Origin: Cylindrospermopsis raciborskii Cr2010
GTDB lineage: Bacteria > Cyanobacteriota > Cyanobacteriia > Cyanobacteriales > Nostocaceae
Reading direction: 5' to 3'
Length of the DNA stretch: 32,000 nucleotides
Assembly: GCF_003367075.2 (NCBI RefSeq)
Contig: NZ_CP065936.1
Coordinates: 1,890,001-1,922,000, forward strand
This document shows positions 3,195-30,197 of this stretch, one piece after another (the stretch's first letter is position 1; every line of letters begins with the position of its first letter). A model generated the notes under the pieces. That model ran no database searches and was not told the origin of the DNA. It was given only the letters and a program-made list of their open reading frames with translations. A program made the translations under genes and the position numbers.

Positions 3195-3197
3195 ACT

Positions 3198-4136: not shown

Positions 4137-5801
4137 TTAGTCGCCCCATAATCGTTGGAAATTACTTGCAGGCGTTCCTAAAAAAGCCAAAAATTGCCTA
4201 GTTTGAAGAGGAGGATTAGCACCAGGAAAAATAGTGAGTAATTCTATGTACCCCTTTTGGTACCCCTTTTGGCGAACTATATTACCATCTACAGTTTTCT
4301 TGTAATGAGGATACATTCGATGATAAATTCTGCCAATATTGCCCATACGACCAGTCAAGGTAGAACCCTTGATTGATTGATTCCCTTGATAATTACCATG
4401 GAACCAATGCACTGCTAAACTATCATCCTTATCTTCAGCTATACGTCCCCAAATTTGTACATTTTGAGGGTGAAAAGATTCTCTCCATAAACACCTCACA
4501 TTTTCAGGTGTTATTCCTTTAAACCTTAACCATTCTTCCACAGTTTGACGAACTTTATCAATGGCATTTTTGATATGTAGAATATTATTAACTGGGAAAT
4601 AATAGTCCTTTGAATCCGGGATGAATTCCCAGTGACAACCAATCATAGGCTTATTTTGATTATCCAAATATTCGGGTAAAAATTCTCTATGATCTATCCG
4701 ACGAGAGGATTTGCCAAATCCACCAATCAACATACTAAATCGCAGAATAGCTTTTGCTAACATTTTCAACTGCTTTTTATATTCAGGAGAAGGATTTTTC
4801 ATACAAACAATGGTTAAGGTACCACTTTTTAAATGGTAGGTGGGCATGGTGACATTATTATATCTAAACTCACCCATGACTAAATTTTCTGGATTAAAAC
4901 TAATCCCTAAATCTCCTGCTATGGCTCCATTATTTCCTGCAAATCCTCCCCACAGTTCTTTGGTTAATTGTTCTGCGGTTTTTTCATTGATCATTCCACT
5001 TAATAATCTGAGGGTATGACCACGGAGAGCAGCTTTAAATATATTGGGACGAAATTCACCACTTTTGTCTATTAACTGTGATGCTAAACCTTTGCCCTTT
5101 AGTTTAACACTTAATAATTTATTCTGGTTTTGTTCTGGTGCAATAACAGGTTGACCATAACCCGCACTGACTCTAGAACCAATACCCTTTTGTATGGCTT
5201 TATCCCAAATCTCCCAAATTGTTTGCCACTCAGTATCATCTAACTCAATATTGCTAGAAATACCAAAAACCAGGGTTGGTTGATATAGGGAAATTTGTAG
5301 GAATGCAGAATGACTATTATGATTTTTAACTTGCCATTCTTCTTGAGGGTGAACTATGTCAATTAATTGTTGCTCACGCCAACTATCATCTTTTGGATAT
5401 GCACCATGAAACCGCAATATACCTGGTTTGGTATCCTGGGTAGTTTGAGTTCCACAATATCTTATACCTTGTTCACGGGTGCAACTTCTTAAAAATGCCC
5501 CCTTCATACTAGCACCAGGATAATAGGGAAATCCATTGGCACCAATTACAGGTCTAATAATATCATCATCTTGTCCACTATTGGCAAGAAAACGCCAGGA
5601 AATCTCATATTCTTTGGTTCTCACATGAGTCCCAAATTTAGGTAGGTTTGCTACTGCTTCATCCCATTCGTCAACCCATCTTTCTGGCTTTGACCGATCT
5701 GCAATATACTGAACCTGTCCCCTTCCATCAACTTGAGCTTGAAACATTAAGGGGACTTCATTACTGTTCATTAAACGTAATTCATTAATCATCATTTTCA
5801 C
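4137..5801 (-). CDS. cmr6: Type III-B double-RAMP subunit, Cmr6-like N-terminal half fused to a Cmr1-like C-terminal half (cassette A)
   Basis: 554 aa, about twice the size of a stand-alone Cmr6. The first half has RPVIGANGFPYYPGASMKGAFLR and the G-rich loop GIGSRVSAGYGQP. The second half has FRPNIFKAALRGHTLRLL and LIGGFGKSSRR. It is the last gene of the cmr operon. The start is uncertain: MNSNEVPLMFQAQ (ATG 5771) aligns with MSHNSVPLMYQAQ of the paralog. Confidence 0.75.
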   Translation of the reverse strand: MKMMINELRLMNSNEVPLMFQAQVDGRGQVQYIADRSKPERWVDEWDEAVANLPKFGTHVRTKEYEISWRFLANSGQDDDIIRPVIGANGFPYYPGASMKGAFLRSCTREQGIRYCGTQTTQDTKPGILRFHGAYPKDDSWREQQLIDIVHPQEEWQVKNHNSHSAFLQISLYQPTLVFGISSNIELDDTEWQTIWEIWDKAIQKGIGSRVSAGYGQPVIAPEQNQNKLLSVKLKGKGLASQLIDKSGEFRPNIFKAALRGHTLRLLSGMINEKTAEQLTKELWGGFAGNNGAIAGDLGISFNPENLVMGEFRYNNVTMPTYHLKSGTLTIVCMKNPSPEYKKQLKMLAKAILRFSMLIGGFGKSSRRIDHREFLPEYLDNQNKPMIGCHWEFIPDSKDYYFPVNNILHIKNAIDKVRQTVEEWLRFKGITPENVRCLWRESFHPQNVQIWGRIAEDKDDSLAVHWFHGNYQGNQSIKGSTLTGRMGNIGRIYHRMYPHYKKTVDGNIVRQKGYQKGYIELLTIFPGANPPLQTRQFLAFLGTPASNFQRLWGD

Positions 5802-6213
5802 CTGCTTTTTTATAGCGTTGAGTCCACCACACTAAGCTATCACAAAATTGTGTTAACACGGCTAAACAAACACGTTGGTCATCAATAGATAGGTTCCATA
5901 ATCTAGATGCATAGTCTTGTAGTTGTGCGGTGTCATTATTAGTTGGTATTTCTGGTAATTGTACGCCCGCATTCTTCATAATCTGTGTGAATTCTTTCCA
6001 GGTAGCCTGCCAATACTTACCTTTTTGTTGGTCATCATCATTATTTTTATTATTTTTACTCAACAGTCGTAGGTGTTCACCGGAAAATCTTTCTAAACCG
6101 TAGGCTACGGTGCTACGCATTTTATGGGATTGACCAATCACACCTTTTTTATCTCGATAGATAAGAACTAATTTTTGAGCTTTCTGATCTAAATTATAGG
6201 ATTTCCAGGTCAT
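5785..6213 (-). CDS. cmr5: Small subunit, Cmr5/Cas11-like (cassette A)
   Basis: 142 aa with helical-looking sequence, sitting between cmr4 and cmr6 where cmr5 normally lies. It is homologous to the 130-aa protein at the same position in cassette B (shared KMRSTV.YGLERF.GE.LRL and WWTQRYK). The assignment rests mainly on position and size. Confidence 0.55.
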   Translation of the reverse strand: MTWKSYNLDQKAQKLVLIYRDKKGVIGQSHKMRSTVAYGLERFSGEHLRLLSKNNKNNDDDQQKGKYWQATWKEFTQIMKNAGVQLPEIPTNNDTAQLQDYASRLWNLSIDDQRVCLAVLTQFCDSLVWWTQRYKKAGENDD

Positions 6214-6216
6214 AAT

Positions 6217-7062
6217 TTACGCTCCTTTAACTGTTAATTGACAATGACCAAAACCAATGGACTCTAATCCACCCAAATAAATATCTCCCGTGTTACTAGT
6301 GCCAAATGCCTGCCATTTTTGTTCACCCTGGATATTGTTTCTAATAGCTATGGGAAATACTAGAATTGTGCCTTCAGGTAAGGCTTCAGTATTGAAAAAT
6401 CCACCCTTATCTACTACTTTTTGTTCCGATTGCAAACGCACCCGACTTTGGCGATATAATGCCATATCATGGATCATTCCAATATCCCCATCATCTACCA
6501 CTACTGCTGATTTTTGTTCAAGTTCAGGGAACCACGCTGATAGATCTTCAGTGTTGTTAATTTCTAAGAATCCTAGGTTAAAAAATATAGTTCTTTTACC
6601 TCCTGCAGCTTGTTTTGTCTTAATTATGGTAGAACCTGTATAAGGTGTGGGAACTGATATTTCCCGAAGAAGTTTATTTTGACCATTCTTTTTTATTTCT
6701 ACCGTGTCACCAGCTATACGTTGGTAACGTTTTAATAAGCGAGGAGAAGTAACCCAAACTATGGGTTGACCTGGACAAAAAACGGGAATCCAAATAATAG
6801 AAGCATATTCAAATTTGACAATAGATTCGTTATTTTTATCGTCATCTGCTCCGTTACCATACCAGTGATTTGCCCTTTCTTCTCCTTCTAAAATGCGAGT
6901 TTCAGCCCGCAATCTTCCACGAATGGAACTACCGGGAATAATCCCCGTTTGGGTGAACTGGTCACGGAATATGAGGTTCAAATTACCACTTTCTTCTCCT
7001 GCAGTTGCACCAACATGAACGGGTGCTAGTGTTTCTATAATGCCATATTGTTTGGTGTACAT
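6217..7062 (-). CDS. cmr4: Cmr4 (Cas7-family backbone RAMP), cassette A
   Basis: N-terminus MYTKQYGIIETLAPVHVGATAGEESGNLNLIFRDQFTQTGIIPGSSIRGRLR. The Asp in IFRDQ sits where the Cmr4 catalytic Asp lies. C-terminal G-rich loop GGLESIGFGHC. Confidence 0.85.
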   Translation of the reverse strand: MYTKQYGIIETLAPVHVGATAGEESGNLNLIFRDQFTQTGIIPGSSIRGRLRAETRILEGEERANHWYGNGADDDKNNESIVKFEYASIIWIPVFCPGQPIVWVTSPRLLKRYQRIAGDTVEIKKNGQNKLLREISVPTPYTGSTIIKTKQAAGGKRTIFFNLGFLEINNTEDLSAWFPELEQKSAVVVDDGDIGMIHDMALYRQSRVRLQSEQKVVDKGGFFNTEALPEGTILVFPIAIRNNIQGEQKWQAFGTSNTGDIYLGGLESIGFGHCQLTVKGA

Positions 7063-7073
7063 TTTTTCTTCCT

Positions 7074-8117
7074 TTAGTTAATTCCCTGAATTTCTACTGG
7101 TAAACACAAACCACAGCCTACTTTTTTGAGACTGTAACCTTCGTTAGGAAACCATTTTTCATCCCATTTCCACCACGGTTGATTAATGGGTTCTTTGAGG
7201 AGGTAAACGCTACCAGCAGGTACAGCATAACGTCCTCTTCCTAAAGTTCCCTGGGAACGAAAACGATAGGGAACTGCTTTGTCTGTGAGTAATTGCACAA
7301 CCTGGGGAAAGGGATGACTGTCATCTTCTGGGTGGGGATAACGGTGAGAAATACGGTTGGATCCCCATACTCCCGGTGTCAATAAGGCAAAACTTTTACC
7401 AATGGGTTGTTGGAGTAATTCCTTGGTTTTGGGTTGAAGTTTTTTACAGGTTATTTCCACAATGTGATTTTCGCCCCCGAATTTATACCAACCATTATCG
7501 ATATCATAAGTGGATAAATAGACTAAACAAACATCATCTGGTAGTTGTACGGAGTTTTCTAAAAACAATCCATCGGATTTTTCAACGCGTCTTGCTGAAA
7601 ACTCAATTTTCGGGTGGAGAAAAGAAACAAATTTCCAAGGATCATTAGCAAGGTTACAAGAATCATTACTAGGTTTACTAGCTTTGACTAGTTCTTTGGT
7701 AGGTAATTTCCACGACTCTATGGTTTGCCAATTATAATCTGACTCCAATTTATAGTCTAGCTTCTCCTCTTGTTTATTATCCTGCTTGTTAGGCAAATAC
7801 CATTCGCCATTTTGGATATTCCACTCTCCCCATTCTTTTTTGCCAATAATTTTATTGCGTGGTATGGGAACAAAAAAGTTCTGTGGATTATCTGAGTTTG
7901 CCCAAAAGGGCCCAGCTACATACAAATTATCTCTTAATTCTACTTGAGATCGCTTGTTATTGACCTTATTGATGCTAAATATGAGACCCGCCAAAGTAGC
8001 AGCTTCAGGGGGGAATTTAGCACCAGAGCGACCTACTAAGTTTTCCGGAGATAAAAATGCCCCCGCACTGCCATACATAAGTCCCAAAGGACTAATACTA
8101 ATTAAGTAATTGAACAT
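7074..8117 (-). CDS. cmr3: Cmr3 (Cas5-family), cassette A
   Basis: N-terminus MFNYLISISPLGLMYGSAGAFLSPENLVGRSGAKFPP. C-terminal GRGRYAVPAGSVYLL and GCGLCLP. The start is set at ATG 8117 (track ORF starts at 8153) because it is homologous to the paralog start MYKYLIIINPLG, and both overlap the cas10 stop by 16 nt. Confidence 0.85.
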   Translation of the reverse strand: MFNYLISISPLGLMYGSAGAFLSPENLVGRSGAKFPPEAATLAGLIFSINKVNNKRSQVELRDNLYVAGPFWANSDNPQNFFVPIPRNKIIGKKEWGEWNIQNGEWYLPNKQDNKQEEKLDYKLESDYNWQTIESWKLPTKELVKASKPSNDSCNLANDPWKFVSFLHPKIEFSARRVEKSDGLFLENSVQLPDDVCLVYLSTYDIDNGWYKFGGENHIVEITCKKLQPKTKELLQQPIGKSFALLTPGVWGSNRISHRYPHPEDDSHPFPQVVQLLTDKAVPYRFRSQGTLGRGRYAVPAGSVYLLKEPINQPWWKWDEKWFPNEGYSLKKVGCGLCLPVEIQGIN

Positions 8118-9718
8118 AAATGCCAACCTACTTCTACTAAGTCCGTAATCCAATCAATAATAGCTTTTGCCTTTTCTATGGTATCAGCATCATCACTAAA
8201 TCCTGATAATTTTTGAGCTAATTCCTCTTGATTTTTATTCATTTGATTGATCAAGGTAGTAACCAAACTTGGTTCAGAATCTTGACTAGGGAAGTAAAGA
8301 TCTAAAAAATGCAAAGCTGTTACCAAGGCTGTTATTTCAACCAGTTTAGTTTTATTGACATTAGTACGATCATCAATATCAAAAGCACGCCGGGATTTTA
8401 AATATGCCAAATCTTGATAAATGTGACTCCAATTTGCTTTTCCTTCTCTGTCTTTGTATTTGGTTAGAATATCCAAATAGTCCCAAGGACAAGTCCACTG
8501 AACATACTGACCACTGTTAAATAGTATGCGCATAGTTATCCTATTTCTTCCCCGAGACTTAGCTACTTTTTCAGCTTCCCGACAGTGTTGTAAAACATCT
8601 CGCTGAGGCACACTACCTGCTACCCAGACAAAACCAACACTCAATGAAATTTCTTGTTCATGTTTTTTCCATGTATCATTTAAACCCAGCAACCACTCAT
8701 AAGCAGTTAATGGGGAGACAGAAAGACTAGGATCTTGACTATAAATTACCCCTAAAAAGTCATCACCACCAGCATAAACTACCTTACCTAAATCGAATCC
8801 TCGTTCAAAATCTCTACCCCATTGTCGTATAGCTAGGCTGAAATTGTGAATTGCAGTATCAGGATCTTCCATCCTAGCTAGTTTTTGCAAGTGATATCCG
8901 ACTCTATCACCATCCCCCATAAACCATCCTGTCCACTGACCCTTAAAGGTTTCCGTTGGTTTACGTTGTATTTCTCTAAAATTTGTGAGCGATCGCTCTA
9001 TATTAATTCCCTTTTGAATTTCGTGCCATGTTATGAGACGTTTAACCAGTTCGGGAATACTGAGTTTTTCATTGACTGCAATAAATTTACCTTCGGGATT
9101 TTCTTCCTCCGTATTGTCGGTTAATTTAGCTAATTCAGTATAGAAATTTTGAATTTGTTCTTTTTCCCACCCATAATTCAAAGTTTGAGGATTGCGATGA
9201 CTTGAGCCCAGATCAGGGAATGCAATACCATCGGATCCACTTAAACTAGAACTTTCGCCAATCCAATTGACAGCGCTCCAATCGCGGGATAACTTTTTAA
9301 CTTCTAGGTCAGACATTGCAGCAATAATAGTATCACCAGAGCCTTGGAATACTTCCCATGCGTGGGAACCCCATAAACTCCATTCTCTCTCCCAGTAATA
9401 TGGACCACAGTTGGTAATATTACCCTCTATCCATTCTCGGCAATGTTTTAGTAATTCCTTCCAGGAACAGAGTATAATATGCTCAGCTGTTTCTTTTGTG
9501 AGTTCCCCCTTAATTAGAATACGATTGGGCATTCCCTTGAGAATGTTAGGACTTGCGGGAGAAATTAGCCTTAAATCTGGATCTTGATCCACATGTTTGG
9601 CTATTTTTTTACTTAAATAAGATAAAATCAGGGATGCACCATACAAGTCTCGTAGTTTACGGGACTTTTCGATGAAACCTTGTACGGGAGCAAAAGTGAC
9701 AACACTATACTTACCCAT
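8102..9718 (-). CDS. cas10: Cas10/Cmr2 without HD domain, GGDD cyclase motif intact (cassette A)
   Basis: 538 aa. It begins directly with MGKYSVVTFAPVQGFIEKSRKLRDLYGASLILSYL, the conserved block that in full-length Cmr2 follows the HD domain. Palm motifs WFMGDGDRVG and VVYAGGDDFLGVIY are present. First gene of the operon. Confidence 0.9.
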   Translation of the reverse strand: MGKYSVVTFAPVQGFIEKSRKLRDLYGASLILSYLSKKIAKHVDQDPDLRLISPASPNILKGMPNRILIKGELTKETAEHIILCSWKELLKHCREWIEGNITNCGPYYWEREWSLWGSHAWEVFQGSGDTIIAAMSDLEVKKLSRDWSAVNWIGESSSLSGSDGIAFPDLGSSHRNPQTLNYGWEKEQIQNFYTELAKLTDNTEEENPEGKFIAVNEKLSIPELVKRLITWHEIQKGINIERSLTNFREIQRKPTETFKGQWTGWFMGDGDRVGYHLQKLARMEDPDTAIHNFSLAIRQWGRDFERGFDLGKVVYAGGDDFLGVIYSQDPSLSVSPLTAYEWLLGLNDTWKKHEQEISLSVGFVWVAGSVPQRDVLQHCREAEKVAKSRGRNRITMRILFNSGQYVQWTCPWDYLDILTKYKDREGKANWSHIYQDLAYLKSRRAFDIDDRTNVNKTKLVEITALVTALHFLDLYFPSQDSEPSLVTTLINQMNKNQEELAQKLSGFSDDADTIEKAKAIIDWITDLVEVGWHLCSIT

Positions 9719-10042: not shown

Positions 10043-10324
10043 TTGATAATTGTGTATATTTCACGTCGCTCTGCCACTCTTAGAAACATTTCTGTTGCCG
10101 TTGTTAATGGAATTATCACCTTGGTAATTTTATTGATTGCGCCCTTGGGATTAGCAGCAGTTATTATCAATACAATACTGATAACATTTGCTACTTATTT
10201 TGTATCCAATATTGCTGATAGGATAGTATGGTGGTTACAGTCAGAATCGAGGAAAGATATGGAAGCTGGTGGAAACGAATATTCTGCTGTCAAGAAGTCA
10301 AATTTACAACGTTGGTGGCGTTAA
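10043..10324 (+). CDS. Hypothetical small membrane protein (two predicted TM helices), translationally coupled to cas1
   Basis: 93 codons from TTG 10043 (GTG 10052 is an alternative); no ATG start. Hydrophobic core ISVAVVNGIITLVILLIAPLGLAAVIINTILITFATYFVSNIA. Its stop TAA (10322..10324) overlaps the cas1 ATG (10324..10326) as TAATG. Confidence 0.4.
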   Translation: MIIVYISRRSATLRNISVAVVNGIITLVILLIAPLGLAAVIINTILITFATYFVSNIADRIVWWLQSESRKDMEAGGNEYSAVKKSNLQRWWR

Positions 10325-11316
10325 TGCAAACCCTGTATGTTTCTGAGCAAAACTGCTACATTTGCTTGCAAAAAGAGATATTAGTGGTAAAAAGAGGTGA
10401 AGTTACACAAGCACAAGTGCAGTTACCCTTATTAGAACAGATACTAATATTTGGTAGTTCCCAGGTAACCACTCAAGTAGTTCGAGCCTGTTTGTTGCGC
10501 GACATTCCTATTGCCTATTTATCCAGAATGGGTTACTGCTATGGCAGAATTTTACCAATATCGAGAGGATATCGCCAACTGTCTCGTTATCAACAACAAC
10601 TTTCTGCTATGGAAAAATTAGTAACAGCGAGGGAGATTATTAAAAGTAAAATAAAGAACAGTAGAGTATTATTGCAAAGACAGAAGAAAAAAACAGCATC
10701 TGCTAATTTAGAACGTGTTTTAGAAAGCCTTAATTATTTAGCAGAGCAAACTGCATCAGCTGACAGTTGTGAGAGACTAATGGGGATAGAAGGCGCTGGT
10801 GCTGCCCAATATTTTTCAGCTTTTGGGGAATGTCTTAGCAACGAGAATTTTATTTTTTTAGGTCGCAGTCGTCGTCCCCCTGGAAACCAGGTCAACGCCA
10901 TGTTGAGTTTTGGATATCAAGTGCTTTGGAATCATCTATTGGCACTAATAGAAATTCAAGGTTTAGATCCTTACTATGGTTGTTTGCATCAAGGTCATGA
11001 TGGTCATCCAGCATTAGCTTCTGATTTAATTGAAGAGTTTCGCTCCCCATTAATAGACTCATTGGTTATGTGGTTAATCAATCGCAATATTTTTGATGTA
11101 GGAGCTGATTTTGAGTTTATAAAAGGGGGATGTTATTTAAATAATTCAGGAAGAAAAAAGTTTTTACAAGCTTTTTTGCAAAGAATGACAGAGGAAGTAC
11201 AAACGGAGGATGGAACTAAACAACCAAAGTGGGACTTACTCACTCAACAGGTAAGAGCTTTTAAGCAGTTTGTTTACAATCCTGCCCATCACTATCGTCC
11301 ATATAGAATACATTAG
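10324..11316 (+). CDS. cas1: Cas1 integrase
   Basis: MQTLYVSEQNCYICLQKEILVVKRGE... is a typical Cas1 N-terminus. Also NAMLSFGYQVLWNHLLALIEIQGLDPYYGCLHQ and ALASDLIEEFRSPLIDSLV. ATG 10324 is preferred over the upstream in-frame start at 10228 used by the ORF track. Confidence 0.9.
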   Translation: MQTLYVSEQNCYICLQKEILVVKRGEVTQAQVQLPLLEQILIFGSSQVTTQVVRACLLRDIPIAYLSRMGYCYGRILPISRGYRQLSRYQQQLSAMEKLVTAREIIKSKIKNSRVLLQRQKKKTASANLERVLESLNYLAEQTASADSCERLMGIEGAGAAQYFSAFGECLSNENFIFLGRSRRPPGNQVNAMLSFGYQVLWNHLLALIEIQGLDPYYGCLHQGHDGHPALASDLIEEFRSPLIDSLVMWLINRNIFDVGADFEFIKGGCYLNNSGRKKFLQAFLQRMTEEVQTEDGTKQPKWDLLTQQVRAFKQFVYNPAHHYRPYRIH

Positions 11317-11397
11317 TTTTTCTTTACAGCAGAATGTCTTAATTTTATGCTGAATTACATTATAAGTTTATGGTATTATTAAGTGGTACTTCTAATT

Positions 11398-11679
11398 ATG
11401 TTTTTATATGTAATTGCCTACGATGTTCCTGATGATAAAAGGCGCAAGAAAGTAGCTGATTTACTAGAAGGTTATGGTCAGCGAGTGCAGTATTCCGTAT
11501 TTGAGTGTCAACTAAGCACACAGCAATATCGTGATTTGCATTCCCGACTGAAAAAGATTATCAAGTTACAAGAGGATAATATTAGATTTTATCCTTTATC
11601 TAAACATACCATTCCTCAAATAGAAGCTTGGGGAGTGGGAGTACCCATAGTGCAATTACCCAATTCTATTATTATCTGA
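11398..11679 (+). CDS. cas2: Cas2
   Basis: MFLYVIAYDVPDDKRRKKVADLLEGYGQRVQYSVFECQL is the canonical Cas2 N-terminus. 93 aa from ATG 11398 (track start is GTG 11383). Lies directly upstream of the leader and array. Confidence 0.9.
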   Translation: MFLYVIAYDVPDDKRRKKVADLLEGYGQRVQYSVFECQLSTQQYRDLHSRLKKIIKLQEDNIRFYPLSKHTIPQIEAWGVGVPIVQLPNSIII

Positions 11680-12093
11680 GTATTCATGCTAGGTAAAGTT
11701 TTAATCTATATGATATCTGTTTACTTTAGTCTAAGCAAAAATAAAATATACAATAAATTTTTTGTTTTTGAATACTAGTTATTTGAGCATGAATCAGTTA
11801 TAATGATATAGCTAGATGGGTTAATTAACGATTAGTATTGAGATTATTTATTGAGTATTAATTAAGGGCTAAAGTGATATTAATGACAGTAAATTCAGTG
11901 ATTAACGAATGAAATGCGAAGGTCAGGAAAAAACGCTGGAATGCCTATTATTTCGTCGGGAACCTCGCAGCCTTGTGGTGTAAGGGTTTCAGCCATTATT
12001 TTGAGGGTGGTAGGGGTGAAAAACAGAGAAAATTTGCTGACCTTCGCAAAGTGGGTCTAGACACCAGTCAGGGTAAGGGCTTAAAATGGAGGT
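11680..12093 (+). promoter_or_regulatory. CRISPR leader (AT-rich, between cas2 and repeat 1)
   Basis: 414 bp non-coding and very AT-rich in its first ~230 bp. It lies on the side opposite the degenerate terminal repeat. It contains a TATAAT hexamer at 11799..11804 (promoter status unproven) and a 12-bp inverted repeat at 11915..11926 / 12037..12048. Confidence 0.6.
11915..12048. repeat. 12-bp perfect inverted repeat in the leader (TGCGAAGGTCAG ... CTGACCTTCGCA) enclosing 110 nt
   Basis: Read directly: 11915..11926 and 12037..12048 are exact reverse complements. The right arm ends 46 nt before repeat 1. Confidence 0.9.
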
Positions 12094-20093: not shown

Positions 20094-20837
20094 TAGAGGT
20101 ATGAATTGAGGTAATCTACTGTGCATTGTCCAAACTGCGGGTCTTCCAAAATCAGAAAGAATGGCAAACGTCGAGGTAAACAAAATCACATTTGTGTTGA
20201 TTGTGGTCGTCAATTTATCGATGTCTATAGTCCACCTAAAGGCTATTCAGAAGAAGTTAAACAAAGTTGCCTGCGCTCTTATGTTAACGGTATGGGATTT
20301 AGAGCAATTGAACGCGATAAAGGCGTTCATCATACAACTATTATTTACTGGCTAAAACAAATTGGTTCCATACTTCCAGATGCTCCACCAGTTGAGGAAA
20401 CACCCTTGGTAGGTGAGCTTGATGAGTTGGAGACCTTTGTGGGATCAAAAAAAAACAAAATATGGTTGTGGACAGCAGTAAATCACTTCCGTAAAAATAT
20501 CCTGGCTTGGGTTGTGGGAGACCACAGCTCACAAGCATTTCAACCTTTGTGGGACATCGTTAAACTCTGGCAATGCTTTTTTTATGTTACTGATGGGTGG
20601 AGGGTTTATCCGAGTTTTATTCAGCCAGAGGATCATATTGTGAGCAAAACATATATGACTAGGGTAGAGGGTGAAAATACACGTTTACGTCACTACTTAG
20701 CGCGACTACATAGAAAAACGCTATGCTATTCAAAATCTGTAGATATGCTTAGGTATTCAATTAAATTATTACTTCACTATTTAAAGTATGAAGTAATACC
20801 CGCGTTTAGTTGATTCATCCCGCAAATATGCAACGCC
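20082..20837 (+). mobile_element. IS1-family insertion sequence, 756 bp, apparently intact
   Basis: Imperfect terminal inverted repeats: GGCGTTGCATAATAGAGGTATGAAT (20082..) versus the reverse complement of the right end, GGCGTTGCATATTTGCGGGATGAAT (..20837). The first 11 nt are identical. One transposase ORF fills the element. No clean target-site duplication could be identified. Confidence 0.85.
20121..20813 (+). CDS. IS1-family transposase (single fused ORF, N-terminal zinc finger + HTH + DDE)
   Basis: MHCPNCGSSKIRKNGKRRGKQNHICVDCGRQF provides the zinc finger. DDE-region blocks are IWLWTAVNHFRKNILAWVVGDHS, YVTDGWRVY and EGENTRLRHYLARLHRKT. Confidence 0.9.
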   Translation: MHCPNCGSSKIRKNGKRRGKQNHICVDCGRQFIDVYSPPKGYSEEVKQSCLRSYVNGMGFRAIERDKGVHHTTIIYWLKQIGSILPDAPPVEETPLVGELDELETFVGSKKNKIWLWTAVNHFRKNILAWVVGDHSSQAFQPLWDIVKLWQCFFYVTDGWRVYPSFIQPEDHIVSKTYMTRVEGENTRLRHYLARLHRKTLCYSKSVDMLRYSIKLLLHYLKYEVIPAFS

Positions 20838-20849
20838 CTCTCAAATTCT

Positions 20850-22613: not shown

Positions 22614-24167
22614 TCAAGTGTATAAGCAAGTGGATTCATAGTTCTCTAATTCCCTAACTATCTCCTCGTGGACTTGATACATAATACTTGCATCTTCCAG
22701 AGAATTAAATTTCTCATCTGTAATGAAGTTTAAACAGCATAGAACTCTTTTCTCCCAATGATCTTTTGTTGTTTTTTTCCAAGCCTTGAAGACTTCTTCT
22801 TCAGATAATCCAAGTATGTTGTGAAATATTTTATTTCTTTCGGTTTTTGTAACTTCGTAAAATTTTTTCATATCGTCATTCTTATTTATTTCTAATTCTT
22901 TGATTATCTTGAATAAATCTTTCCACCGATCAACTTTAAGTGTATTTGATCGATTAAAAAATTTATTGTTAACTTTTTCTTGAAGACTACGTTCCAATTC
23001 ATTGATCATCGTTTCACAAATTGCTTTATTAGCATAATCGTCTTTGTTGGTAATGTGCTGATGATATTTGTCTTCAATCCAGTTAATGATTAATCCTTCC
23101 ACAGATCTGAAACTGTGAAATAGTGCTTCCACACTGTTTCCTTGCTCTATTCTTACCACAGCTAAATAGGCAGCTTCATATGCTGGCCACCAGTAATATT
23201 TCAATCGCTCTTCTGCTGTTTTCTCAAACTTTGGTAGCTTTTTTAATTCCTCAATAAAACCTTCGGCTTTAGAAGTATTTGATTTAACTTTGAATTCAGA
23301 AGTATTCCACTTAATAGCTGCATTTAATAAATTTTTAATGTTATCCATTTTCTCATCCTGGTTATTAGGATCGTCTAATAAATCATCTTTTAACAAATCC
23401 AGGACACCTGAATAATCAAAACGTTTCAGTAAGATTTTTGCCTCTTGCAGTTTAAGTCCCCGCAAATAATTGGAAGTATTTATGATTTTTGTACTTTCAC
23501 TTTTGTATTCATTGGAAACCAAAAATTTCACTTTTTTACCGAATCTTGATAAGCTGAGAAATTGAATTGCAGATGAAATAGCAGGTGTACCAGCTTGATG
23601 ACTTACATATATATTATTCAAATCTTGATCTTTCATTAGTCCGAGTATACTTGAAGAATTAAATAGTTCTTTCATGATCAGCTTGGGCACTTGATCCCAG
23701 CTATCTAAACTTTCTGATTCTGATTTTGGTTGAATTGTGACATAATTAATCTCTGACTGAGGAAATTTACTTTTCAAATATTTCTCGATTATTGGTTTCA
23801 AAGTACAAGTATCTTTCCAGTATGGGCTATCTAAACCAGGATCGCCGTCCTCGCAATTCTCCCTAATAAATCTCTGATCTGTCAAAATAACAATTATTTG
23901 ATTAATATCCTTTTTTTCTTGTTCTAATTTTTGAGAAAAATTATCCAGTAATGGAAAACATAGGTGTTCATGTATGGAATAACCTAATTTTTCGCCAATA
24001 GCCATTCCCATAGCTCTTGCTGGAACTAAAAACATATCTTTTTCTTTATCTTCTTCCCCAAATTCATGAGGAAGTTTTTTGGATAGTTCATTCCATCGAC
24101 ATATTCCAGAAATTTTGAGTTGAACATCACTGTTACCGGTTGTCAAGATCCAAATATTACTACTCAT
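22614..24167 (-). CDS. CARF-like N-terminal domain fused to a HEPN RNase domain (Csx1/Csm6-like cOA effector), appended to cassette B
   Basis: 517 aa. The Rossmann-like N-terminal part has IWILTTGNSDVQL, CFPLLDNF, QIIVILTDQ and NIYVSHQAGTPAISSAIQ. The helical C-terminal part carries an R-x4-H HEPN motif in KTERNKIFHNILG. It lies 108 nt downstream of cmr6/1 B on the same strand. Confidence 0.65.
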   Translation of the reverse strand: MSSNIWILTTGNSDVQLKISGICRWNELSKKLPHEFGEEDKEKDMFLVPARAMGMAIGEKLGYSIHEHLCFPLLDNFSQKLEQEKKDINQIIVILTDQRFIRENCEDGDPGLDSPYWKDTCTLKPIIEKYLKSKFPQSEINYVTIQPKSESESLDSWDQVPKLIMKELFNSSSILGLMKDQDLNNIYVSHQAGTPAISSAIQFLSLSRFGKKVKFLVSNEYKSESTKIINTSNYLRGLKLQEAKILLKRFDYSGVLDLLKDDLLDDPNNQDEKMDNIKNLLNAAIKWNTSEFKVKSNTSKAEGFIEELKKLPKFEKTAEERLKYYWWPAYEAAYLAVVRIEQGNSVEALFHSFRSVEGLIINWIEDKYHQHITNKDDYANKAICETMINELERSLQEKVNNKFFNRSNTLKVDRWKDLFKIIKELEINKNDDMKKFYEVTKTERNKIFHNILGLSEEEVFKAWKKTTKDHWEKRVLCCLNFITDEKFNSLEDASIMYQVHEEIVRELENYESTCLYT

Positions 24168-24275: not shown

Positions 24276-26078
24276 TTAACTGCCCCAAAGTTTTTCAAAA
24301 GTGTTATCATTTTCTAACAATTTGAAGAATTCTGTTTTCAGATCTGGGTTATCTGGAGCAAATATGGTTAATATTTCTACGTATCTACACTTTGTTTGTT
24401 TACAATCATGTACTATTTTATCGTTCCGTATAGTAGTATATAGAGGATACATTCTGTGCCAAATTTGACTGATTTTTCTCTTTCCAGAATCAACATATCC
24501 GGTTAAATCTGTTCTTTTGATATTATCTCGATGAAACCATTCAATGGCTCTACTATCTTCTCGACCTTCTGCTATTCTTGCCCATACCTGTACATTTTTT
24601 GGGTGCCAAGATTCTCGCCATGTTTCTACATATGGACCTGTGGTTCCGGATTTAATATATTGAGGAAAGTATCCTCTTACTGTATCTGGAAGATCGGATA
24701 AAAATTTCTTTATATTATTCAATTTTCCATCGTTTACTGTAATGCAATATTCTTCCAATTGAAATGATTTTTGAAAAATCCAATGGCAACCAATTAGTAT
24801 ATCTTTCCTATATGCTGGATAAAAGAGTTTATGATCTGATCTGCGCCATGATCTACCAAAACCACCTAGCAGCATGGAGAACTTAATTAGTAAAGCTAGA
24901 AATTGCCGTTCATTTTCTGAACAGCGACCAGCTAAAGTTGAATTAGTATTACTAATTTCTAGTAAACCTTCTAAATCATATCTAATTTCTTGATCAATAT
25001 CATATTTAAAATTCACATCATATTTAAAACTAACACCAAATTTACCAACAGTTGAACCTTTTTTATGAATGTCTGAAGTAATCCCACCCCATAATTCTTC
25101 ACTTATCTTTTGCACTGTGTATTCGTCAGTTAACCCTGCTAATAATCGTAAAGTATGACCTCTTAATGTCGCTTTAAACATATTAGGACGAAATTCCGAA
25201 GAGGCGTTTTGATTTAATAACCTAGAATTTATTCCTTTTCCTTTTAAACCGACCGATATAACAACTTTATTATCAGTCAAAAATACTGTTTCCGAATTTT
25301 GAGAATTTTGAGAATTTTTAAATTTACCGTATCCAGCACTGGTTCTAGAACCAATTCCGTTCGATAAAGCATGTTCCCAAATTCTTTGAACTAACTCCCA
25401 GTCTAAATCATTTGAATGGTTATATTTAATTTCTGAAATACCAAATATAAAAGTTGTGCGGTACAGTGAAATTTGCAAATTAGCTTTAGTTTTTATGTCA
25501 TCATACATAACCTGAAATTTTTGTTGACTGTGAATAATATCAAGCAAGCGATCACTATTTGCCCAGGACATATCTACAGGATAGCCCCCATGAAAACGTA
25601 AAATTCCTGGCTTTGTTGTTTTTCCGCCAACACATTTTTCTTCCCCACCACAATAATCTAATACTTTGTCTGGTTCAATCTCTAAACAAGCTCTCAAAAA
25701 AGCTCCCTTCATACTAGTTCCTGTGTAGTAAGGTACACCTTTTGCACCGATAACAGGTCGAATTATTCCGTCGTCTTGTCCTGAATTTGTAACTAAACGC
25801 CAAATTAGTGTATATTCCCACGTATGGACATTTTGTCCAAACTTAGGTATTCTTATTGTTGATGGCTTCTGTTTCCATTTCGGCAAGACTTCATCTGATT
25901 TATTAGGTATGGGGGGACATCCTTTGAACCACTCCTCTATCCACTGTTTTGCTGCTGATTTATTTCCAGCATATTGAATCATTCCCCTATCTTTAATTTG
26001 AGCTTGATACATTAATGGTACTGAATTATGACTCATTTTTTTGTCCTCACCTATAACTTCTCTCAATTTTTTAGCCAC
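24276..26078 (-). CDS. cmr6: Type III-B double-RAMP subunit, Cmr6-like + Cmr1-like fusion (cassette B)
   Basis: 600 aa paralog of 4137..5801. Motifs: RPVIGAKGVPYYTGTSMKGAFLR, GIGSRTSAGYGKF, FRPNMFKATLRGHTLRLL and LLGGFGRSWRR. The likely true start is MSHNSVPLMYQAQ (ATG 26036). Confidence 0.75.
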   Translation of the reverse strand: MAKKLREVIGEDKKMSHNSVPLMYQAQIKDRGMIQYAGNKSAAKQWIEEWFKGCPPIPNKSDEVLPKWKQKPSTIRIPKFGQNVHTWEYTLIWRLVTNSGQDDGIIRPVIGAKGVPYYTGTSMKGAFLRACLEIEPDKVLDYCGGEEKCVGGKTTKPGILRFHGGYPVDMSWANSDRLLDIIHSQQKFQVMYDDIKTKANLQISLYRTTFIFGISEIKYNHSNDLDWELVQRIWEHALSNGIGSRTSAGYGKFKNSQNSQNSETVFLTDNKVVISVGLKGKGINSRLLNQNASSEFRPNMFKATLRGHTLRLLAGLTDEYTVQKISEELWGGITSDIHKKGSTVGKFGVSFKYDVNFKYDIDQEIRYDLEGLLEISNTNSTLAGRCSENERQFLALLIKFSMLLGGFGRSWRRSDHKLFYPAYRKDILIGCHWIFQKSFQLEEYCITVNDGKLNNIKKFLSDLPDTVRGYFPQYIKSGTTGPYVETWRESWHPKNVQVWARIAEGREDSRAIEWFHRDNIKRTDLTGYVDSGKRKISQIWHRMYPLYTTIRNDKIVHDCKQTKCRYVEILTIFAPDNPDLKTEFFKLLENDNTFEKLWGS

Positions 26079-26120: not shown

Positions 26121-26513
26121 TCAATTCTCTTGATCAGTTTCGTTACTTGCTGTAGGTTTGTATCTTTGTGTCCACCAAACCATATAATCACATAGTTGTG
26201 TTAGTATTGAAAGTGTAACTTTTCGATACGCTAAAGGAAATTTTTGTGAATCCCATAAATCTTCCGGTGTTCGAGGTACTTGGATACTAGCTTGATGCAT
26301 AGTTATGACCAATTTGTCCCAAGTATCTGCCCAATATTGAGATTTCTTATTATTTTTATCTTCTTTTAATCGCAATTGTTCACCCCAGAACCTTTCTAAA
26401 CCATAGTGAACCGTAGAGCGCATTTTGTAAACTTGCTTTGATGCTTCATCATCTTTATATTTTTTGACTAATTCGTGAGCAATCTTGTCTAGATTAAAAT
26501 CTTCCCAGGACAT
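26121..26513 (-). CDS. cmr5: Small subunit, Cmr5/Cas11-like (cassette B)
   Basis: 130 aa. Same position as, and homologous to, 5785..6213 (KMRSTVHYGLERFWGEQLRL, VWWTQRYK). Confidence 0.55.
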   Translation of the reverse strand: MSWEDFNLDKIAHELVKKYKDDEASKQVYKMRSTVHYGLERFWGEQLRLKEDKNNKKSQYWADTWDKLVITMHQASIQVPRTPEDLWDSQKFPLAYRKVTLSILTQLCDYMVWWTQRYKPTASNETDQEN

Positions 26514-26564
26514 ACTTACCTCGTAATATAACTAACTTTGTAAGATTATTAAATACTAACAGTT

Positions 26565-27440
26565 TTATTGGATAAATACTGTGACTTCACAGTACCCAAA
26601 ACCTACGGACTCCAAACCCCCAAAATAAATATTAGCCTTATTAATTCTAGGCTGATCTTGTTCATACTCTCCAGCAAAAGGTTTCCATGTTTCAGGTTTA
26701 TTTTGACCGTTCTTTTTAATACCAATAGGAAAAACTAAAAAGGTTTCCTCTGGTAATGCTTCAACTCCAAAAAAATTCTTACTACACTTTTGTTCCTTTT
26801 CTAAAGCAACACGACTTTGACGGTAGAGTGCCATATCATGAATCATAGAAATTTCATTGTCACGTACTATTATTGCTGGTAATTTTTCTTGATTCGGAAA
26901 CCAACAGTCATCTATATATTCGTTGTTCTTAATACTCAAAAAACCAAAATTGAAGAATAATTTGTTGTTTGGTAAAGGTACAAGGTTTTTGGATCTAGAA
27001 TATTCACTAGGTAGAGGTTTTTGCAATCCAGTGATTCTCTTGTAACGCTTCAACAAACGTGGACAGCTTACCCAAACAATTGGTTGACCTGGACAGAATA
27101 CAGGTAGCCAAATGATAGAAGCATAGTCAAACTTTACTAATGATTCAGTTATTCTACTGTAAATAGCAGAATCGTCTGTATTATTCTCATCATTACGCTC
27201 ATCTGTGTAAGTGAAATCATTTCCATACCATTTTTTTACCTCTGTTTCTTTTTTGTCTCCCGAGTGATTGTACCGCATTAAAGCTCGGAATCTACCACGA
27301 ATTGAGCTGCCAGGAATAATACCAGTTTGAGTAAATTGATCTCGAAAAATTAGGTTGATATTTCCCGTTTCTTCTCCCGCTGTTGCTCCTACATGTAATG
27401 GTGCTTCTGTTTTAATAATTCCATAACCCTGATGATACAT
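26565..27440 (-). CDS. cmr4: Cmr4 (Cas7-family backbone RAMP), cassette B
   Basis: N-terminus MYHQGYGIIKTEAPLHVGATAGEETGNINLIFRDQFTQTGIIPGSSIRGRFR. C-terminal GGLESVGFGYC. Relative to the cassette A copy it carries an insertion after RYNHSGDKK. Confidence 0.85.
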   Translation of the reverse strand: MYHQGYGIIKTEAPLHVGATAGEETGNINLIFRDQFTQTGIIPGSSIRGRFRALMRYNHSGDKKETEVKKWYGNDFTYTDERNDENNTDDSAIYSRITESLVKFDYASIIWLPVFCPGQPIVWVSCPRLLKRYKRITGLQKPLPSEYSRSKNLVPLPNNKLFFNFGFLSIKNNEYIDDCWFPNQEKLPAIIVRDNEISMIHDMALYRQSRVALEKEQKCSKNFFGVEALPEETFLVFPIGIKKNGQNKPETWKPFAGEYEQDQPRINKANIYFGGLESVGFGYCEVTVFIQ

Positions 27441-27540
27441 AAACTAAATTCTCCTAATTTTATTATTTACTACTTGTCCACACGAATGAAATAGCATAAT
27501 CTGTTGAATCAATGAAAACTAGTTTTTTTCAACTCTAGTA

Positions 27541-28557
27541 TTATTCAACACCCTTAATTTTGATTGGTAAACATAAACCACATCCTAATTGTTTAAGAGA
27601 AAAGCCCTCAGTGGGGAACCATTCATTAGGAAACCCTGCTTCATTTTCGTCCCCCCACCAAGATTTATTTAAAGGCTCTTCAAATACATAAACACTCCCT
27701 GCTGGAACTGCGTAACGTCCTCTTCCTAATCTTCCTCCCCCTTTATTATCTCCCACTCGATAACGGTAAGGTGAAGGTCTATCCGTCAAAATATGGCTAG
27801 GTTTAGGAAAAGTTGTCTGATTTGGGTCTGGGTAGCGACGTGAAAACCGATTTGAACCCCAGACTCCCGGTGTGATCAGGGCAAAACTACGCTGAATTTT
27901 TTCTTTTAACAGACCTAATATCACGTGATTTGACAAATCCTGTGATTCAATTTCCACCAAATGACCCTCACCTCCAAAACAGTACCACCCCTTCGGTATT
28001 TCGTGAGTTGATAAATAAACTAAGCAAAATTCTTGATCATTTTGTATAGCATTTTCTAGAAATAATCCGCTTTCTTCAACACAACGCTCATTTTTAAGTA
28101 ACCTGGGATGTAGTATAGATACGTATCTCCATGGATCTCCTTTGCTCTGATTCATAATGTCTTTAACACGATTATACCGCCAATAATGAATATCATGCCA
28201 TTTACAATCAGGCTCCAAAGATTTTTGATCACGATACCACTTGTCATTTTTTATTTCCCACTCATCTGACTTATTGCTTTTTTGATTGATAATTTTTGTC
28301 CAAGGAATGGGGATGTAGAAGCGGTGTGGTTGGTCTGGTTTTGACCAAAAAGGTCCGGCCAGATGTAATTTCTTGAGTTCTTCATGCTCAATAAATGGGT
28401 TAGTCTTATTGGCTGCAAAGAACAAGCCAGACAAGGTATAAGCGTCTGGAGGAAACTTTGAACCAGAACGTCCTATCAGATTTTCTGATGATAAGAATGC
28501 TCCCGCACTGCCATATAAAAATCCTAAAGGGTTAATAATAATTAGATATTTGTACAT
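27541..28557 (-). CDS. cmr3: Cmr3 (Cas5-family), cassette B
   Basis: N-terminus MYKYLIIINPLGFLYGSAGAFLSSENLIGRSGSKFPP. C-terminal GRGRYAVPAGSVYVF and GCGLCLP. ATG 28557 is preferred to GTG 28566. It overlaps the cas10 B stop by 16 nt, as in cassette A. Confidence 0.85.
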   Translation of the reverse strand: MYKYLIIINPLGFLYGSAGAFLSSENLIGRSGSKFPPDAYTLSGLFFAANKTNPFIEHEELKKLHLAGPFWSKPDQPHRFYIPIPWTKIINQKSNKSDEWEIKNDKWYRDQKSLEPDCKWHDIHYWRYNRVKDIMNQSKGDPWRYVSILHPRLLKNERCVEESGLFLENAIQNDQEFCLVYLSTHEIPKGWYCFGGEGHLVEIESQDLSNHVILGLLKEKIQRSFALITPGVWGSNRFSRRYPDPNQTTFPKPSHILTDRPSPYRYRVGDNKGGGRLGRGRYAVPAGSVYVFEEPLNKSWWGDENEAGFPNEWFPTEGFSLKQLGCGLCLPIKIKGVE

Positions 28558-30197
28558 ATTTGCCACCCTACATTAATTAGATCGTTGATCCAAATAATCA
28601 TATCTATATCTTTCACAAGTGTGTTTCTTTCACCATAAAGAATTGTTGCGGATTCTGTCTGTAGATGTCTTTCGTCCTCAAAATAAATATCAAACAAGGA
28701 CATTCCTAATAGATATTTACTACGATCTTGACTCGATTTATGTAAATCAATGGCATGACGGGCTTTGAGTTCAGCAAGATCACTATAAATATGATTCCAA
28801 TTTGGTTTACAGTTATCCTTCCTACCTCTACATTCCCATTTTGGGTAAGTTTTACCATCCCTGTCCCGGTATCGTTTTAAAACATATAGATAATTCCACG
28901 GACAAGTCCATTGTACATATTGTCCACTATTAAACACAACTCGAATAGTCACTCTGTCCTTACCAGAAGATTTTGCTATCTTCTGTGTTTCTCGACAATG
29001 CTGTAACACATCTCGCTGAGGTACACCCCCTGCTGCCCAGACAAAACCAACACTTAAAGTTATCTTTTGTTTATGCTCATTCCATCGGTCATTCAAAGTC
29101 ATTAACCATTCATAAACTTCCAACCCTATCTTTTTGTCCGTCTGTTTACTGTCTGAAGTCTTTTTTTCAGTTTGTCTACCATAAATTACCCCTAGGAAAT
29201 CATCGCCACCCGCATAAATAACTCTCCCTTGAATATTCGGATTGGGATATCTGTTAAAGTCTTCATAAAAATCCTCCCCCCACTTTAGCATTGCTCTACT
29301 AAATCTACTTAAACCCACATCTCCTTCATCTTCTGCAATATTTTTCAGATGCTCACCAACGTTATCTCCATCTCCCATGAACCATCCTGTCCACAGATAC
29401 TCTGTTTTACCATTAAAATTCGATTGACGCTGGATTTCTGTAAATCTTTCTACCACCGACATGCCCAATTCTTCTGCAATACTGGGATACGTAACTAAAC
29501 GTTTAGTCAGTTCAGGAATACTCAACTTTTCTCTAGGGTCAATAAATTTACCTTGAATTTCTGATGACGTTGGCTCTTCAGTTATTTTTGCCAGATCCGT
29601 ATAGAATGTTTTAATTTGTTTATTTTCTTCTTTATAGTTGGTATGTTTTGGATTACGCCCTGTTCCACCTAATCCTGGGAAAGCGATTGCATCACTACCA
29701 CTTAGACTAGAACTTTCTCCAACCCAATTTATTGCAGTCCAATCACGACACAGTTTTTTGGTTTCTAGTTCTTTCATTACGGATATAGGAGAATCTGCCT
29801 GAGCCCAAAAGATTTCCCAAGTATGATTGGCCCAATGATTCCATTCATCATCCCAATAATAAGGTTCTAAATGTCGCAGATTACTGGTCAACCATTCCTT
29901 ACAACAGTTAAGAACTTTTTTCCAAGTTTGTAAAATTGACTCTCTTGCTTTATCTTCTGGGAAATCGCCTTTAAAAAGAATTCGATTAGGAATTCCTCTT
30001 TCTATATTAGGAGATCCAGGTGAAATCACTTTGATAGTAGATATCTCCCGCTCAGCAGTATCAATTATATGTCTACTTAGGTACGAAAGAATTTGTGATG
30101 CACCATATAAGTCTCGTAACTTCCGAGACTTTTCTATAAATCCTTGTACAGGTGCAAAGGTGACAGCAGTATATATGTATTTTTCTTCGTCATCCAT
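28542..30197 (-). CDS. cas10: Cas10/Cmr2 without HD domain, GGDD motif intact (cassette B)
   Basis: 551 aa. N-terminus YTAVTFAPVQGFIEKSRKLRDLYGASQILSYL, palm motifs WFMGDGDNVG and VIYAGGDDFLGVIY. Alignable along its whole length with 8102..9718. Confidence 0.9.
   Translation of the reverse strand: MDDEEKYIYTAVTFAPVQGFIEKSRKLRDLYGASQILSYLSRHIIDTAEREISTIKVISPGSPNIERGIPNRILFKGDFPEDKARESILQTWKKVLNCCKEWLTSNLRHLEPYYWDDEWNHWANHTWEIFWAQADSPISVMKELETKKLCRDWTAINWVGESSSLSGSDAIAFPGLGGTGRNPKHTNYKEENKQIKTFYTDLAKITEEPTSSEIQGKFIDPREKLSIPELTKRLVTYPSIAEELGMSVVERFTEIQRQSNFNGKTEYLWTGWFMGDGDNVGEHLKNIAEDEGDVGLSRFSRAMLKWGEDFYEDFNRYPNPNIQGRVIYAGGDDFLGVIYGRQTEKKTSDSKQTDKKIGLEVYEWLMTLNDRWNEHKQKITLSVGFVWAAGGVPQRDVLQHCRETQKIAKSSGKDRVTIRVVFNSGQYVQWTCPWNYLYVLKRYRDRDGKTYPKWECRGRKDNCKPNWNHIYSDLAELKARHAIDLHKSSQDRSKYLLGMSLFDIYFEDERHLQTESATILYGERNTLVKDIDMIIWINDLINVGWQICTNI

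Follow-up and report, generated by a model that had tools for sequence, protein, structure and literature searches.

Do two diverged versions of one type III effector module, lying on either side of a single array of CRISPR repeats (short palindromic repeats that are clustered and regularly interspaced), work as two sensors fed by the same CRISPR RNAs (crRNAs), and why would a bacterium keep both? The question is raised by a stretch of 32,000 nucleotides (nt) from Cylindrospermopsis raciborskii Cr2010 (the window), which we examined with a map of open reading frames (ORFs) and with Pfam, NCBIfam and PADLOC scans. Our answer, which we consider probable but still open to real doubt, is that the window holds a chromosomal type III CRISPR-Cas locus in which two paralogous, compact Cmr-type modules from two old sub-lineages are arranged around one csx18-cas1-cas2 set, one array, one kinase-WYL gene and one Csm6-family RNase gene, and that the two modules would act as signalling-only sensors sharing their crRNAs.

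A first-pass annotation had placed two five-gene cassettes (cas10, cmr3, cmr4, cmr5, cmr6/1) on the minus strand, A at 4137-9718 and B at 24276-30197, and both the coordinates and the gene order were confirmed. The genes are as follows, with lengths in amino acids (aa):

8102..9718, minus strand: cassette A cas10/cmr2, 538 aa; Pfam Cmr2_N and palm2; PADLOC Cas10b PDLC02051, E 1.5e-214
7074..8117, minus strand: cassette A cmr3, 347 aa from the homologous ATG; Pfam Cas_Cmr3, E 1.4e-9; PADLOC Cmr3, E 8.6e-17
6217..7062, minus strand: cassette A cmr4, 281 aa; NCBIfam TIGR02580, 111.5 bits, over the cut-off
5785..6213, minus strand: cassette A cmr5, small subunit, 142 aa; PADLOC Cmr5 PDLC01476, E 2.9e-59
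4137..5801, minus strand: cassette A cmr6/1, long RAMP protein, 554-aa ORF; PADLOC Cmr6 PDLC01212 over the full length, E 1.5e-220
28542..30197, minus strand: cassette B cas10/cmr2, 551 aa; Pfam Cmr2_N and palm2; PADLOC match
27541..28557, minus strand: cassette B cmr3, 338 aa; Pfam Cas_Cmr3, E 2.5e-4, 21.1 bits against a 21-bit cut-off
26565..27440, minus strand: cassette B cmr4, 291 aa; NCBIfam Cmr4, 74 bits, just under the cut-off; Pfam RAMPs
26121..26513, minus strand: cassette B cmr5, 130 aa; PADLOC Cmr5, E 2.7e-42
24276..26078, minus strand: cassette B cmr6/1, 600 aa; PADLOC Cmr6 PDLC01212, E 3.9e-180; Pfam RAMPs

Assignment to type III-B follows from several features: a Cas10 with palm domains and GGDD is present, Cmr3, Cmr4, Cmr5 and Cmr6-type subunits are co-encoded, the family has curated full-length PADLOC models, and the NCBI annotation is type III-B. 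The Cmr5 and Cmr6 models of PADLOC match in both cassettes; its Cmr3 model was run on cassette A alone and Cmr3 of cassette B was judged by Pfam Cas_Cmr3, with the A/B alignment of this subunit spanning its full length. The 16-nt overlap of cas10 and cmr3 described for both cassettes (ATGTTCAATTACTTAA in A, ATGTACAAATATCTAA in B) holds when cmr3 starts at the homologous ATG (8117 and 28557), the start that gene callers also pick in other strains. Each cassette closes with a single RAMP protein (554 or 600 aa) and has no separate cmr1. Residues 62-368 of the cassette A Cmr6/1 align with residues 124-452 of the 649-aa Cmr1-Cmr6 fusion of Synechocystis (E 1.5e-10), which makes the long RAMP protein a putative fusion of the same kind. 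Gene callers in other strains give 547-548 aa for the cassette A protein. The cassette B gene contains an in-frame 18-nt tandem repeat (24999-25044), and its product ranges from 580 to 608 aa among strains.

What kind of output could such complexes have? Both Cas10 proteins are HD-less, as had been proposed, with matches to Cmr2_N and palm2 and none to an HD model. The Synechocystis Cas10 has 979 aa and starts with an LLHD motif; the N-terminus of Cas10 A aligns with it only from residue 223 onward. An AlphaFold2 model of Cas10 B (predicted local distance difference test score, pLDDT, 82.8; predicted template modelling score, pTM, 0.84) matches Cmr2 structures (Foldseek E 1.7e-14), with the DtCmr Cas10 and PfCmr2 at the top and engineered HD-deleted (dHD) constructs among them. 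The GDGD and GGDD cyclase motifs are invariant in an alignment of 54 Cas10 sequences that includes both copies, and all residues invariant in the family, across these 54 Cas10 and 106 Cmr4 sequences, are retained by both modules.

One of the invariant Cmr4 residues is Asn29. In three independent profile alignments to solved structures it aligns with the catalytic Asp of PfCmr4 (D26), SisCmr4-beta (D31) and DtCmr4, and it is an Asn in all 106 family sequences, from both lineages and including the A and B copies. The catalytic Asp of Cmr4, a functional feature of type III-B and not a classification criterion, is therefore absent from the family. The D26N change in Cmr4 abolishes cleavage of target RNA and leaves binding intact (PMC4762429). 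Lacking an HD domain and having Asn where the catalytic Asp would be, the complexes are predicted from their sequences to be binding sensors with signal as their sole output. Subtypes III-G and III-H also have Cas7 subunits without the conserved catalytic aspartates, and their array-less loci borrow crRNAs, but these subtypes retain an HD nuclease that seems to be active, and DNA cutting is predicted for them (PMC12669027). Since the C. raciborskii proteins lack HD and have intact cyclase motifs, the opposite specialisation, to signal only, is predicted for them. Neither the Cmr4 Asn nor the CRISPR loci of C. raciborskii were found described in the literature searched.

The two cassettes are old relatives. 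Pairwise protein identities between A and B (Cas10 48, Cmr3 49, Cmr4 50, Cmr5 43 and Cmr6/1 39%) span 39-50%, below the half to two thirds estimated earlier by eye. Cassette B had also been described as richer in A+T and in Lys and Asn; the first part is correct (GC content 35.6% vs 38.3% in A), and the second applies to only three of the five proteins. Relatives were sought by scanning species-representative genomes with a Cmr4 alignment, which gives a list ranked by similarity to A and thus A-lineage loci only; the contexts of B-lineage cassettes came from searching with the Cas10 protein and from looking up exact proteins. Among the species-representative genomes, the best 80 loci are all A-like, with 61-78% identity to the A Cmr4 and 50-59% to that of B. 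The Cas10 search returned a separate set of B-like proteins from other genera, at 55-65% identity, and neighbour-joining trees place the B core group in a small split from which A is excluded in 100 of 100 bootstrap replicates.

These results bear on how the locus came to hold two modules. Tandem duplication within the locus followed by divergence in place would account for the common strand, order and 16-nt overlap of the cassettes, but order and overlap are family-wide features, A and B are each far closer to relatives in other genera (up to 78% for the A Cmr4 and up to 65% for the B Cas10, vs 48-50% between A and B), and they fall in separate clades with 100/100 bootstrap support. We consider such an origin extremely unlikely. 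A recent duplication, which the first-pass annotation had already discounted, was rejected on the A-B identities and the bootstrap tree. The closer relatives elsewhere and the separate clades point to two old sub-lineages that were brought together and not to copies that diverged where they stand.

The adaptation genes and the array lie beside cassette A:

10043..10324, plus strand: csx18, small adaptation-associated protein; NCBIfam NF040558 CAS_Csx18, E 4.8e-30, over the cut-off
10324..11316, plus strand: cas1, 330 aa; Pfam Cas_Cas1, E 1.5e-86
11383..11679, plus strand: cas2; Pfam CRISPR_Cas2, E 3.6e-26
11680..12093, plus strand: leader, from cas2 to the first repeat, assigned by position
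12094..15753, plus strand: CRISPR array, with 49 spacers (34-44 nt) and 50 copies of the repeat CCCCGCTTCCCTCTGGGAAGTGGAATCAATGGAAAC

The window thus has one cas1-cas2 pair and one array, both next to A, and the flanks of B contain no repeats, as had been stated. A scan with the 21-nt core of the repeat found all 50 occurrences inside the array, the last of them degenerate, and no repeat-like sequence elsewhere in the window with up to three mismatches (none expected by chance). The open frame of cas1 reaches back to 10228, and the 330-aa product is the one called in other strains. No cas6 was found among the ORFs of the window or among the genes called within 10 kb in other strains. The repeat RNA is predicted to fold (-15.3 kcal/mol, z -3.7) with nt 3-23 as a stem-loop and, after it, a single-stranded tail of 13 nt. 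Among strains the leader is conserved, and downstream of it the arrays are completely different. The repeat itself varies among strains in its first four bases (CCCC vs GTAC). In metagenome contigs the identical 36-nt repeat has other contexts: it flanks a TPR gene that adjoins a second repeat family, lies close to a type I restriction subunit, stands at the end of an array with a 1075-aa DUF3854 protein after it, and occurs beside a variant repeat.

Is the two-module layout an accident of one strain? Apart from an IS1 insertion, the window is 99.4% identical in nucleotides to the C. raciborskii-type chromosome CP073250.1, and identical proteins occur in many assemblies. The A-type Cmr4 is unchanged in 93 blocks of the assembly collection. 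The second position, between the FabG-like gene and the kinase-WYL gene (both listed below), is variable. Cassettes of the type seen here (B1) occur in at least four assemblies, and a second allele (B2), whose Cas10 is 63% identical to that of B1, sits in the same slot in AP018317.1 and others, with flanks 95-99% identical in DNA. In CP060822.1 a 1065-aa Cas10 stands beside the kinase-WYL gene instead of B; its first 140 residues, from which alone this module is known, show a weak alignment to the N-terminal part of the Synechocystis Cas10 and would give it an HD-domain-like N-terminus, and a protein search with these 140 residues gave no match. One contig of UAM/DH-BiRr carries, in order, the tail of a second cassette (a partial ORF, then cmr4-cmr5-cmr6/1), a Csm6-like gene, kinase-WYL, HicAB, a gap, cas2-cas1-csx18 and cassette A, the gap being uncalled sequence at the position that the array has in other strains. 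The two-module layout is therefore a property of C. raciborskii, with a second slot that is allelic (B1, B2, long Cas10). The pattern of alleles resembles what replacement of cassettes, or balancing selection, would leave in a defence island. AP018317.1 has in addition a copy of the leader beside its B2 cassette (L097:19166-19476), 92% identical to positions 11802-12112 of the window and accompanied, judged by eye, by an apparent degenerate repeat; it may be a relic of an array that the second module formerly owned.

Given one array and two modules, it is plausible, judging from the repeats, that the two complexes draw on one crRNA pool. The B1 and B2 cassettes of C. raciborskii have no repeats within 10 kb on their far side. 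Stand-alone B-lineage cassettes in other genera do have arrays. Their 14-nt repeat tails overlap with those of arrays adjoining A-lineage cassettes, with GAATTAATGGAAAC beside both, and the tail of one B-lineage locus (L104), GAATCAATGGAAAC, is exactly that of the window. Because this handle is common to arrays accompanying either lineage elsewhere, both complexes would be expected to load the crRNAs of the local array.

Cassette B might instead ignore the local array, as an array-less III-B module served in trans by arrays elsewhere in the genome or on plasmids, with its position reflecting defence-island clustering. Array-less III-B loci are the rule in the 2025 classification, where modules of this kind are said to obtain their crRNAs in trans (PMC12669027). 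Between B and the array lies a variable mixture of insertion sequence (IS) elements, a toxin-antitoxin pair and CARF genes, as clustering would suggest; nevertheless, strains preserve the layout of two modules with the array between them, including those with the 63%-identical allele as second cassette. The identical repeat does occur, as arrays or as single repeats, in other metagenome contexts, but the arrays found so far carry the same repeat and would feed the same pool as the local one. With repeat tails common to both lineages, we think it unlikely that B disregards the array beside it, and loading of both complexes from one pool remains our preferred reading.

The remaining genes of the window include the candidate recipients of a signal and the neighbours of the locus:

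1369-4004, plus strand: phosphonate-type ABC transporter; ORF map and domain scans
15969-16175, plus strand: hicB, between the array and the WYL gene
16269-16376, plus strand: truncated hicA remnant, between the array and the WYL gene
16451..18586, minus strand: P-loop kinase (AAA_33)-WYL-WCX protein, 711 aa; Pfam AAA_33 and WCX; PADLOC WYL, E 7.1e-20
19155..20093, plus strand: truncated CARF-RelE gene (Cas_APE2256 family); PADLOC CARF7--CARF_RelE, E 3.6e-121
20082..20838, plus strand: IS1-family element with terminal inverted repeats GGCGTTGCAT; transposase at 20121-20813; NCBIfam transpos_IS1, E 8.3e-76
20960..22261, minus strand: IS200/605-type tnpB, broken into at least two ORFs; NCBIfam guided_TnpB on both fragments
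22614..24167, minus strand: predicted Csm6-family CARF-6H-HEPN RNase, 517 aa; PADLOC CARF1--CARF_HEPN, E 5.9e-141
30451-31146, plus strand: FabG-like reductase

The 517-aa protein next to cassette B is a "hypothetical protein" in public records, and single-sequence searches of PDB, Pfam and NCBIfam gave no match for it. A family profile, searched against PDB, found the Enterococcus italicus Csm6 structure 6TUG (E 1.9e-7) with the RNxxxH motif aligned. An AlphaFold2 model (pLDDT 83) had EiCsm6, StCsm6', TtCsm6 and Csx1 as its top Foldseek matches over the full length. An N-terminal CARF fold and a C-terminal HEPN domain are present, and R444 and H449 of the HEPN R-x4-6-H motif are invariant. 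The protein shares the CARF-6H-HEPN fold and the invariant R-N-x3-H with Csm6 of E. italicus and Csm6' of Streptococcus thermophilus, from which it differs in being only 13-17% identical; it is, on the profile and the model, a predicted Csm6-family CARF-6H-HEPN RNase. Its alleles in C. raciborskii are between 47% and 100% identical, with many nonsynonymous differences in close pairs.

A homologue of this gene lies directly downstream of cmr6/1, on the same strand, in 62 of the 64 evaluable loci of other species, and stand-alone B-lineage loci have one as well; the canonical module is thus one of six genes. Cassette A is without the sixth gene in every strain seen. That B alone has an intact cyclic oligoadenylate (cOA) effector in the window, as the first-pass annotation had proposed, is supported by the profile, the model and the PADLOC match. 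The same annotation had called the other CARF gene IS-disrupted, and this also proved correct: IS1 has taken the place of about 256 nt, made up of the final 60 codons and the adjoining downstream sequence. Native sequence runs to 20081, and the reading frame ends at residue 309 of 369 to give a 312-aa truncated protein. The PADLOC match covers model positions 2-305 of 359, so that the CARF part is present, but the gene is not a complete CARF-RelE gene, since the C-terminal 60 residues, the putative toxin part, are deleted. In CP073250.1 the gene is intact at 369 aa and the IS1 is absent. The accessory genes are therefore split between the modules, A adjoining the adaptation genes and the array, and B adjoining the only intact effector.

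Among the other neighbours, the kinase-WYL-WCX protein has an N-terminal P-loop kinase that is PNK/PSTK-like, and 51 of the 64 loci of other species have a homologue of it; a role as regulator or as RNA-end kinase is possible. The tnpB gene is intact at 423 aa in CP073250.1. The hicA remnant is cut to 35 aa (69 aa in other strains), and hicB is intact. Rfam and tRNA scans of the window were empty, and promoter and terminator scans gave counts inside the shuffle expectation.

Could just one of the cassettes be functional, with the other silent, a decaying remnant or a hitch-hiking spare copy? Cassette A lacks the Csm6-like gene that nearly all its relatives have, decay is evident elsewhere in the locus (CARF-RelE, tnpB and hicA), and the promoter scans are uninformative. 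However, all ten cassette ORFs are intact and keep the residues invariant in Cas10 and Cmr4, and for each cassette several strains have Cas10 and Cmr4 proteins with 100% identity to one another. Intact B-type cassettes on both sides of the deep B1/B2 divergence also speak against a decaying second module. We regard it as quite improbable that either cassette is inert.

If both modules are functional and share crRNAs, the system might operate as follows. The array would be transcribed from the leader on the cas2 side, and host RNases (RNase E in the case of Synechocystis CRISPR3) would cut the single-stranded, A/U-rich tail after the repeat stem-loop, leaving a 13-14-nt 5' handle that begins in the AAUCAAUGGAAAC tail and ends in GGAAAC. 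Both complexes would load these crRNAs, and binding of a complementary phage transcript would turn on the Cas10 cyclase. The cOA produced would then activate the single Csm6-like RNase and, in strains without the IS1 insertion, CARF-RelE as well. The likeliest reason for having two sensors is robustness against phage counter-measures aimed at one complex, which fits the strongly diverged alleles of the second slot. A broader proposal, which we put forward only tentatively, is that the cyanobacterial family as a whole is a natural type III sensor that is RNase-dead and DNase-less and confers immunity only through cOA to the Csm6 of the sixth gene, that the two C. raciborskii sensors share array and Csm6, and that the second slot may be kept polymorphic by phages, some of which have arrays of their own.

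Phages do figure in the array. Spacer 10 (12793-12833) matches a hypothetical gene of the Cylindrospermopsis phages Cr-LKS4 (31 of 32 nt) and CrV-01T (30 of 32 nt) in the sense orientation, and Cr-LKS4 is matched over 33-42 nt by four spacers from sister strains. The array is in use against phages. Nine other strains, whose flanks are 98-99.6% identical, have none of the 49 spacers in their arrays, and no spacer is self-targeting against the window, where the longest match is 14 nt. Phage Cr-LKS4 itself carries two annotated CRISPR arrays (positions 87526-89128 of the record) with the repeat GTTGGGAACGGGTGGAGAAGTTAGGTCAATGGGAAC. The last 11 nt of this repeat are one base off the host repeat tail (TCAATGGGAAC vs TCAATGGAAAC), and given this near-host tail the phage arrays may use the host complexes.

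Several observations weigh against two signalling-only sensors that share crRNAs. Repeat tails vary slightly among loci, with GCATAATTGGAAAC beside some B-lineage cassettes, so that some preference of the complexes for particular handles is possible. The single array is a statement about this window only, and the identical repeat in metagenome contigs means that C. raciborskii may hold further arrays of the same kind. The five spacer-phage matches comprise three sense and two antisense to annotated genes, which does not support an mRNA-directed bias, although the number is small and the phage genome has inverted duplications. The conserved Glu23/Glu24 of Cmr4 or another subunit could supply RNase activity. 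Finally, ratios of nonsynonymous to synonymous substitution rates within the species offer no help, since most genes have too few substitutions and only cmr6/1 and the Csm6-like gene vary, with unstable ratios.

How much of this design is already known? The nearest described system is CRISPR3 of Synechocystis sp. PCC 6803 (pSYSA), for which the label III-Bv was defined by the Cmr1-Cmr6 fusion and the absence of cas6 (PMC6546367). There RNase E cuts after the stem-loop of the repeat to give 13-14-nt handles without Cas6 (PMC12464536). In that system, too, csx18-cas1-cas2 diverge from cas10, cmr3, cmr4, a small-subunit gene and a long RAMP fusion, cas6 is absent (PMC6546367), the array adjoins cas2, the repeat combines a 5' stem-loop with an A/U-rich tail that ends in TGGAAAC, and Cmr4 is without the catalytic Asp, with Leu in its place. 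The differences are substantial. The Synechocystis Cas10 has 979 aa, with an extra N-terminal region of about 220 aa bearing the HD motif, as compared with 538-551 aa in C. raciborskii, and the aligned stretch of Cas10 is about 50 residues for A and up to 160 for B. Identities are 29% for Cmr4, 23% for Cmr3 and 21-22% for Cmr6/1, and the small subunits have no BLAST match. The Synechocystis operon is interrupted by a peptidase gene and showed no sixth gene of the Csm6-like kind, and the module is single. The III-Bv label that had been given to the C. raciborskii cassettes thus stands on the putative fusion and the missing cas6 and fails on Cas10 architecture and close relationship; we use it loosely at most, because of the HD motif in the longer Synechocystis Cas10 and subunits that are only 21-29% identical.

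Coexisting effector complexes also have precedents. In Saccharolobus islandicus REY15A, the Cmr-alpha and Cmr-beta complexes use the common arrays and adaptation module of the genome. These are two diverged III-B modules, and both are active in defence (PMC9368842). They differ from the present pair in being archaeal and Cas6-dependent, both of their Cmr4 proteins have the catalytic Asp (D27 and D31), and Cmr2-alpha has an HD domain, known from HD mutants (PMC9368842); the C. raciborskii modules, in contrast, are both compact and HD-less, flank one array and split the accessory genes. For Pyrococcus furiosus, I-A, I-G and III-B complexes with seven arrays and a single cas6 are described (10.1101/2020.04.14.041012). 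Here again several effector complexes coexist with common arrays, but they are of different types, in an archaeon, with Cas6-dependent processing. The first-pass annotation knew of no described III-Bv locus organised in this way, and this claim of novelty is weakly justified: several C. raciborskii genomes have the same layout, array-less III-B loci are the rule (PMC12669027) and multi-effector genomes are known. We find the locus to be real and moderately surprising, built on an already known design. Its chief points of note are that the accessory genes are divided between the modules, that the second slot is polymorphic and that the D-to-N change in Cmr4 is invariant.

For the family, the Cmr4 change means that a large and widespread group of cyanobacterial Cmr systems, also devoid of the HD nuclease, bears the exact substitution used in the laboratory to kill the RNase. 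In S. islandicus, loss of target RNA cleavage removes the normal off-switch (PMC9368842); if the cyanobacterial complexes are nuclease-inactive, the question becomes how such a sensor switches off without destroying its target. For C. raciborskii, if both modules load the same crRNAs, the locus would offer a naturally occurring bacterial example in which to test why a type III sensor is kept in two versions, with redundancy against anti-CRISPR proteins, differing tolerance of target or tag mismatches and differing signal output as possible reasons. The split of the accessory genes gives clean genetic predictions, and the organism is a toxic bloom-former with isolated phages that the spacers match, which makes the system experimentally approachable.

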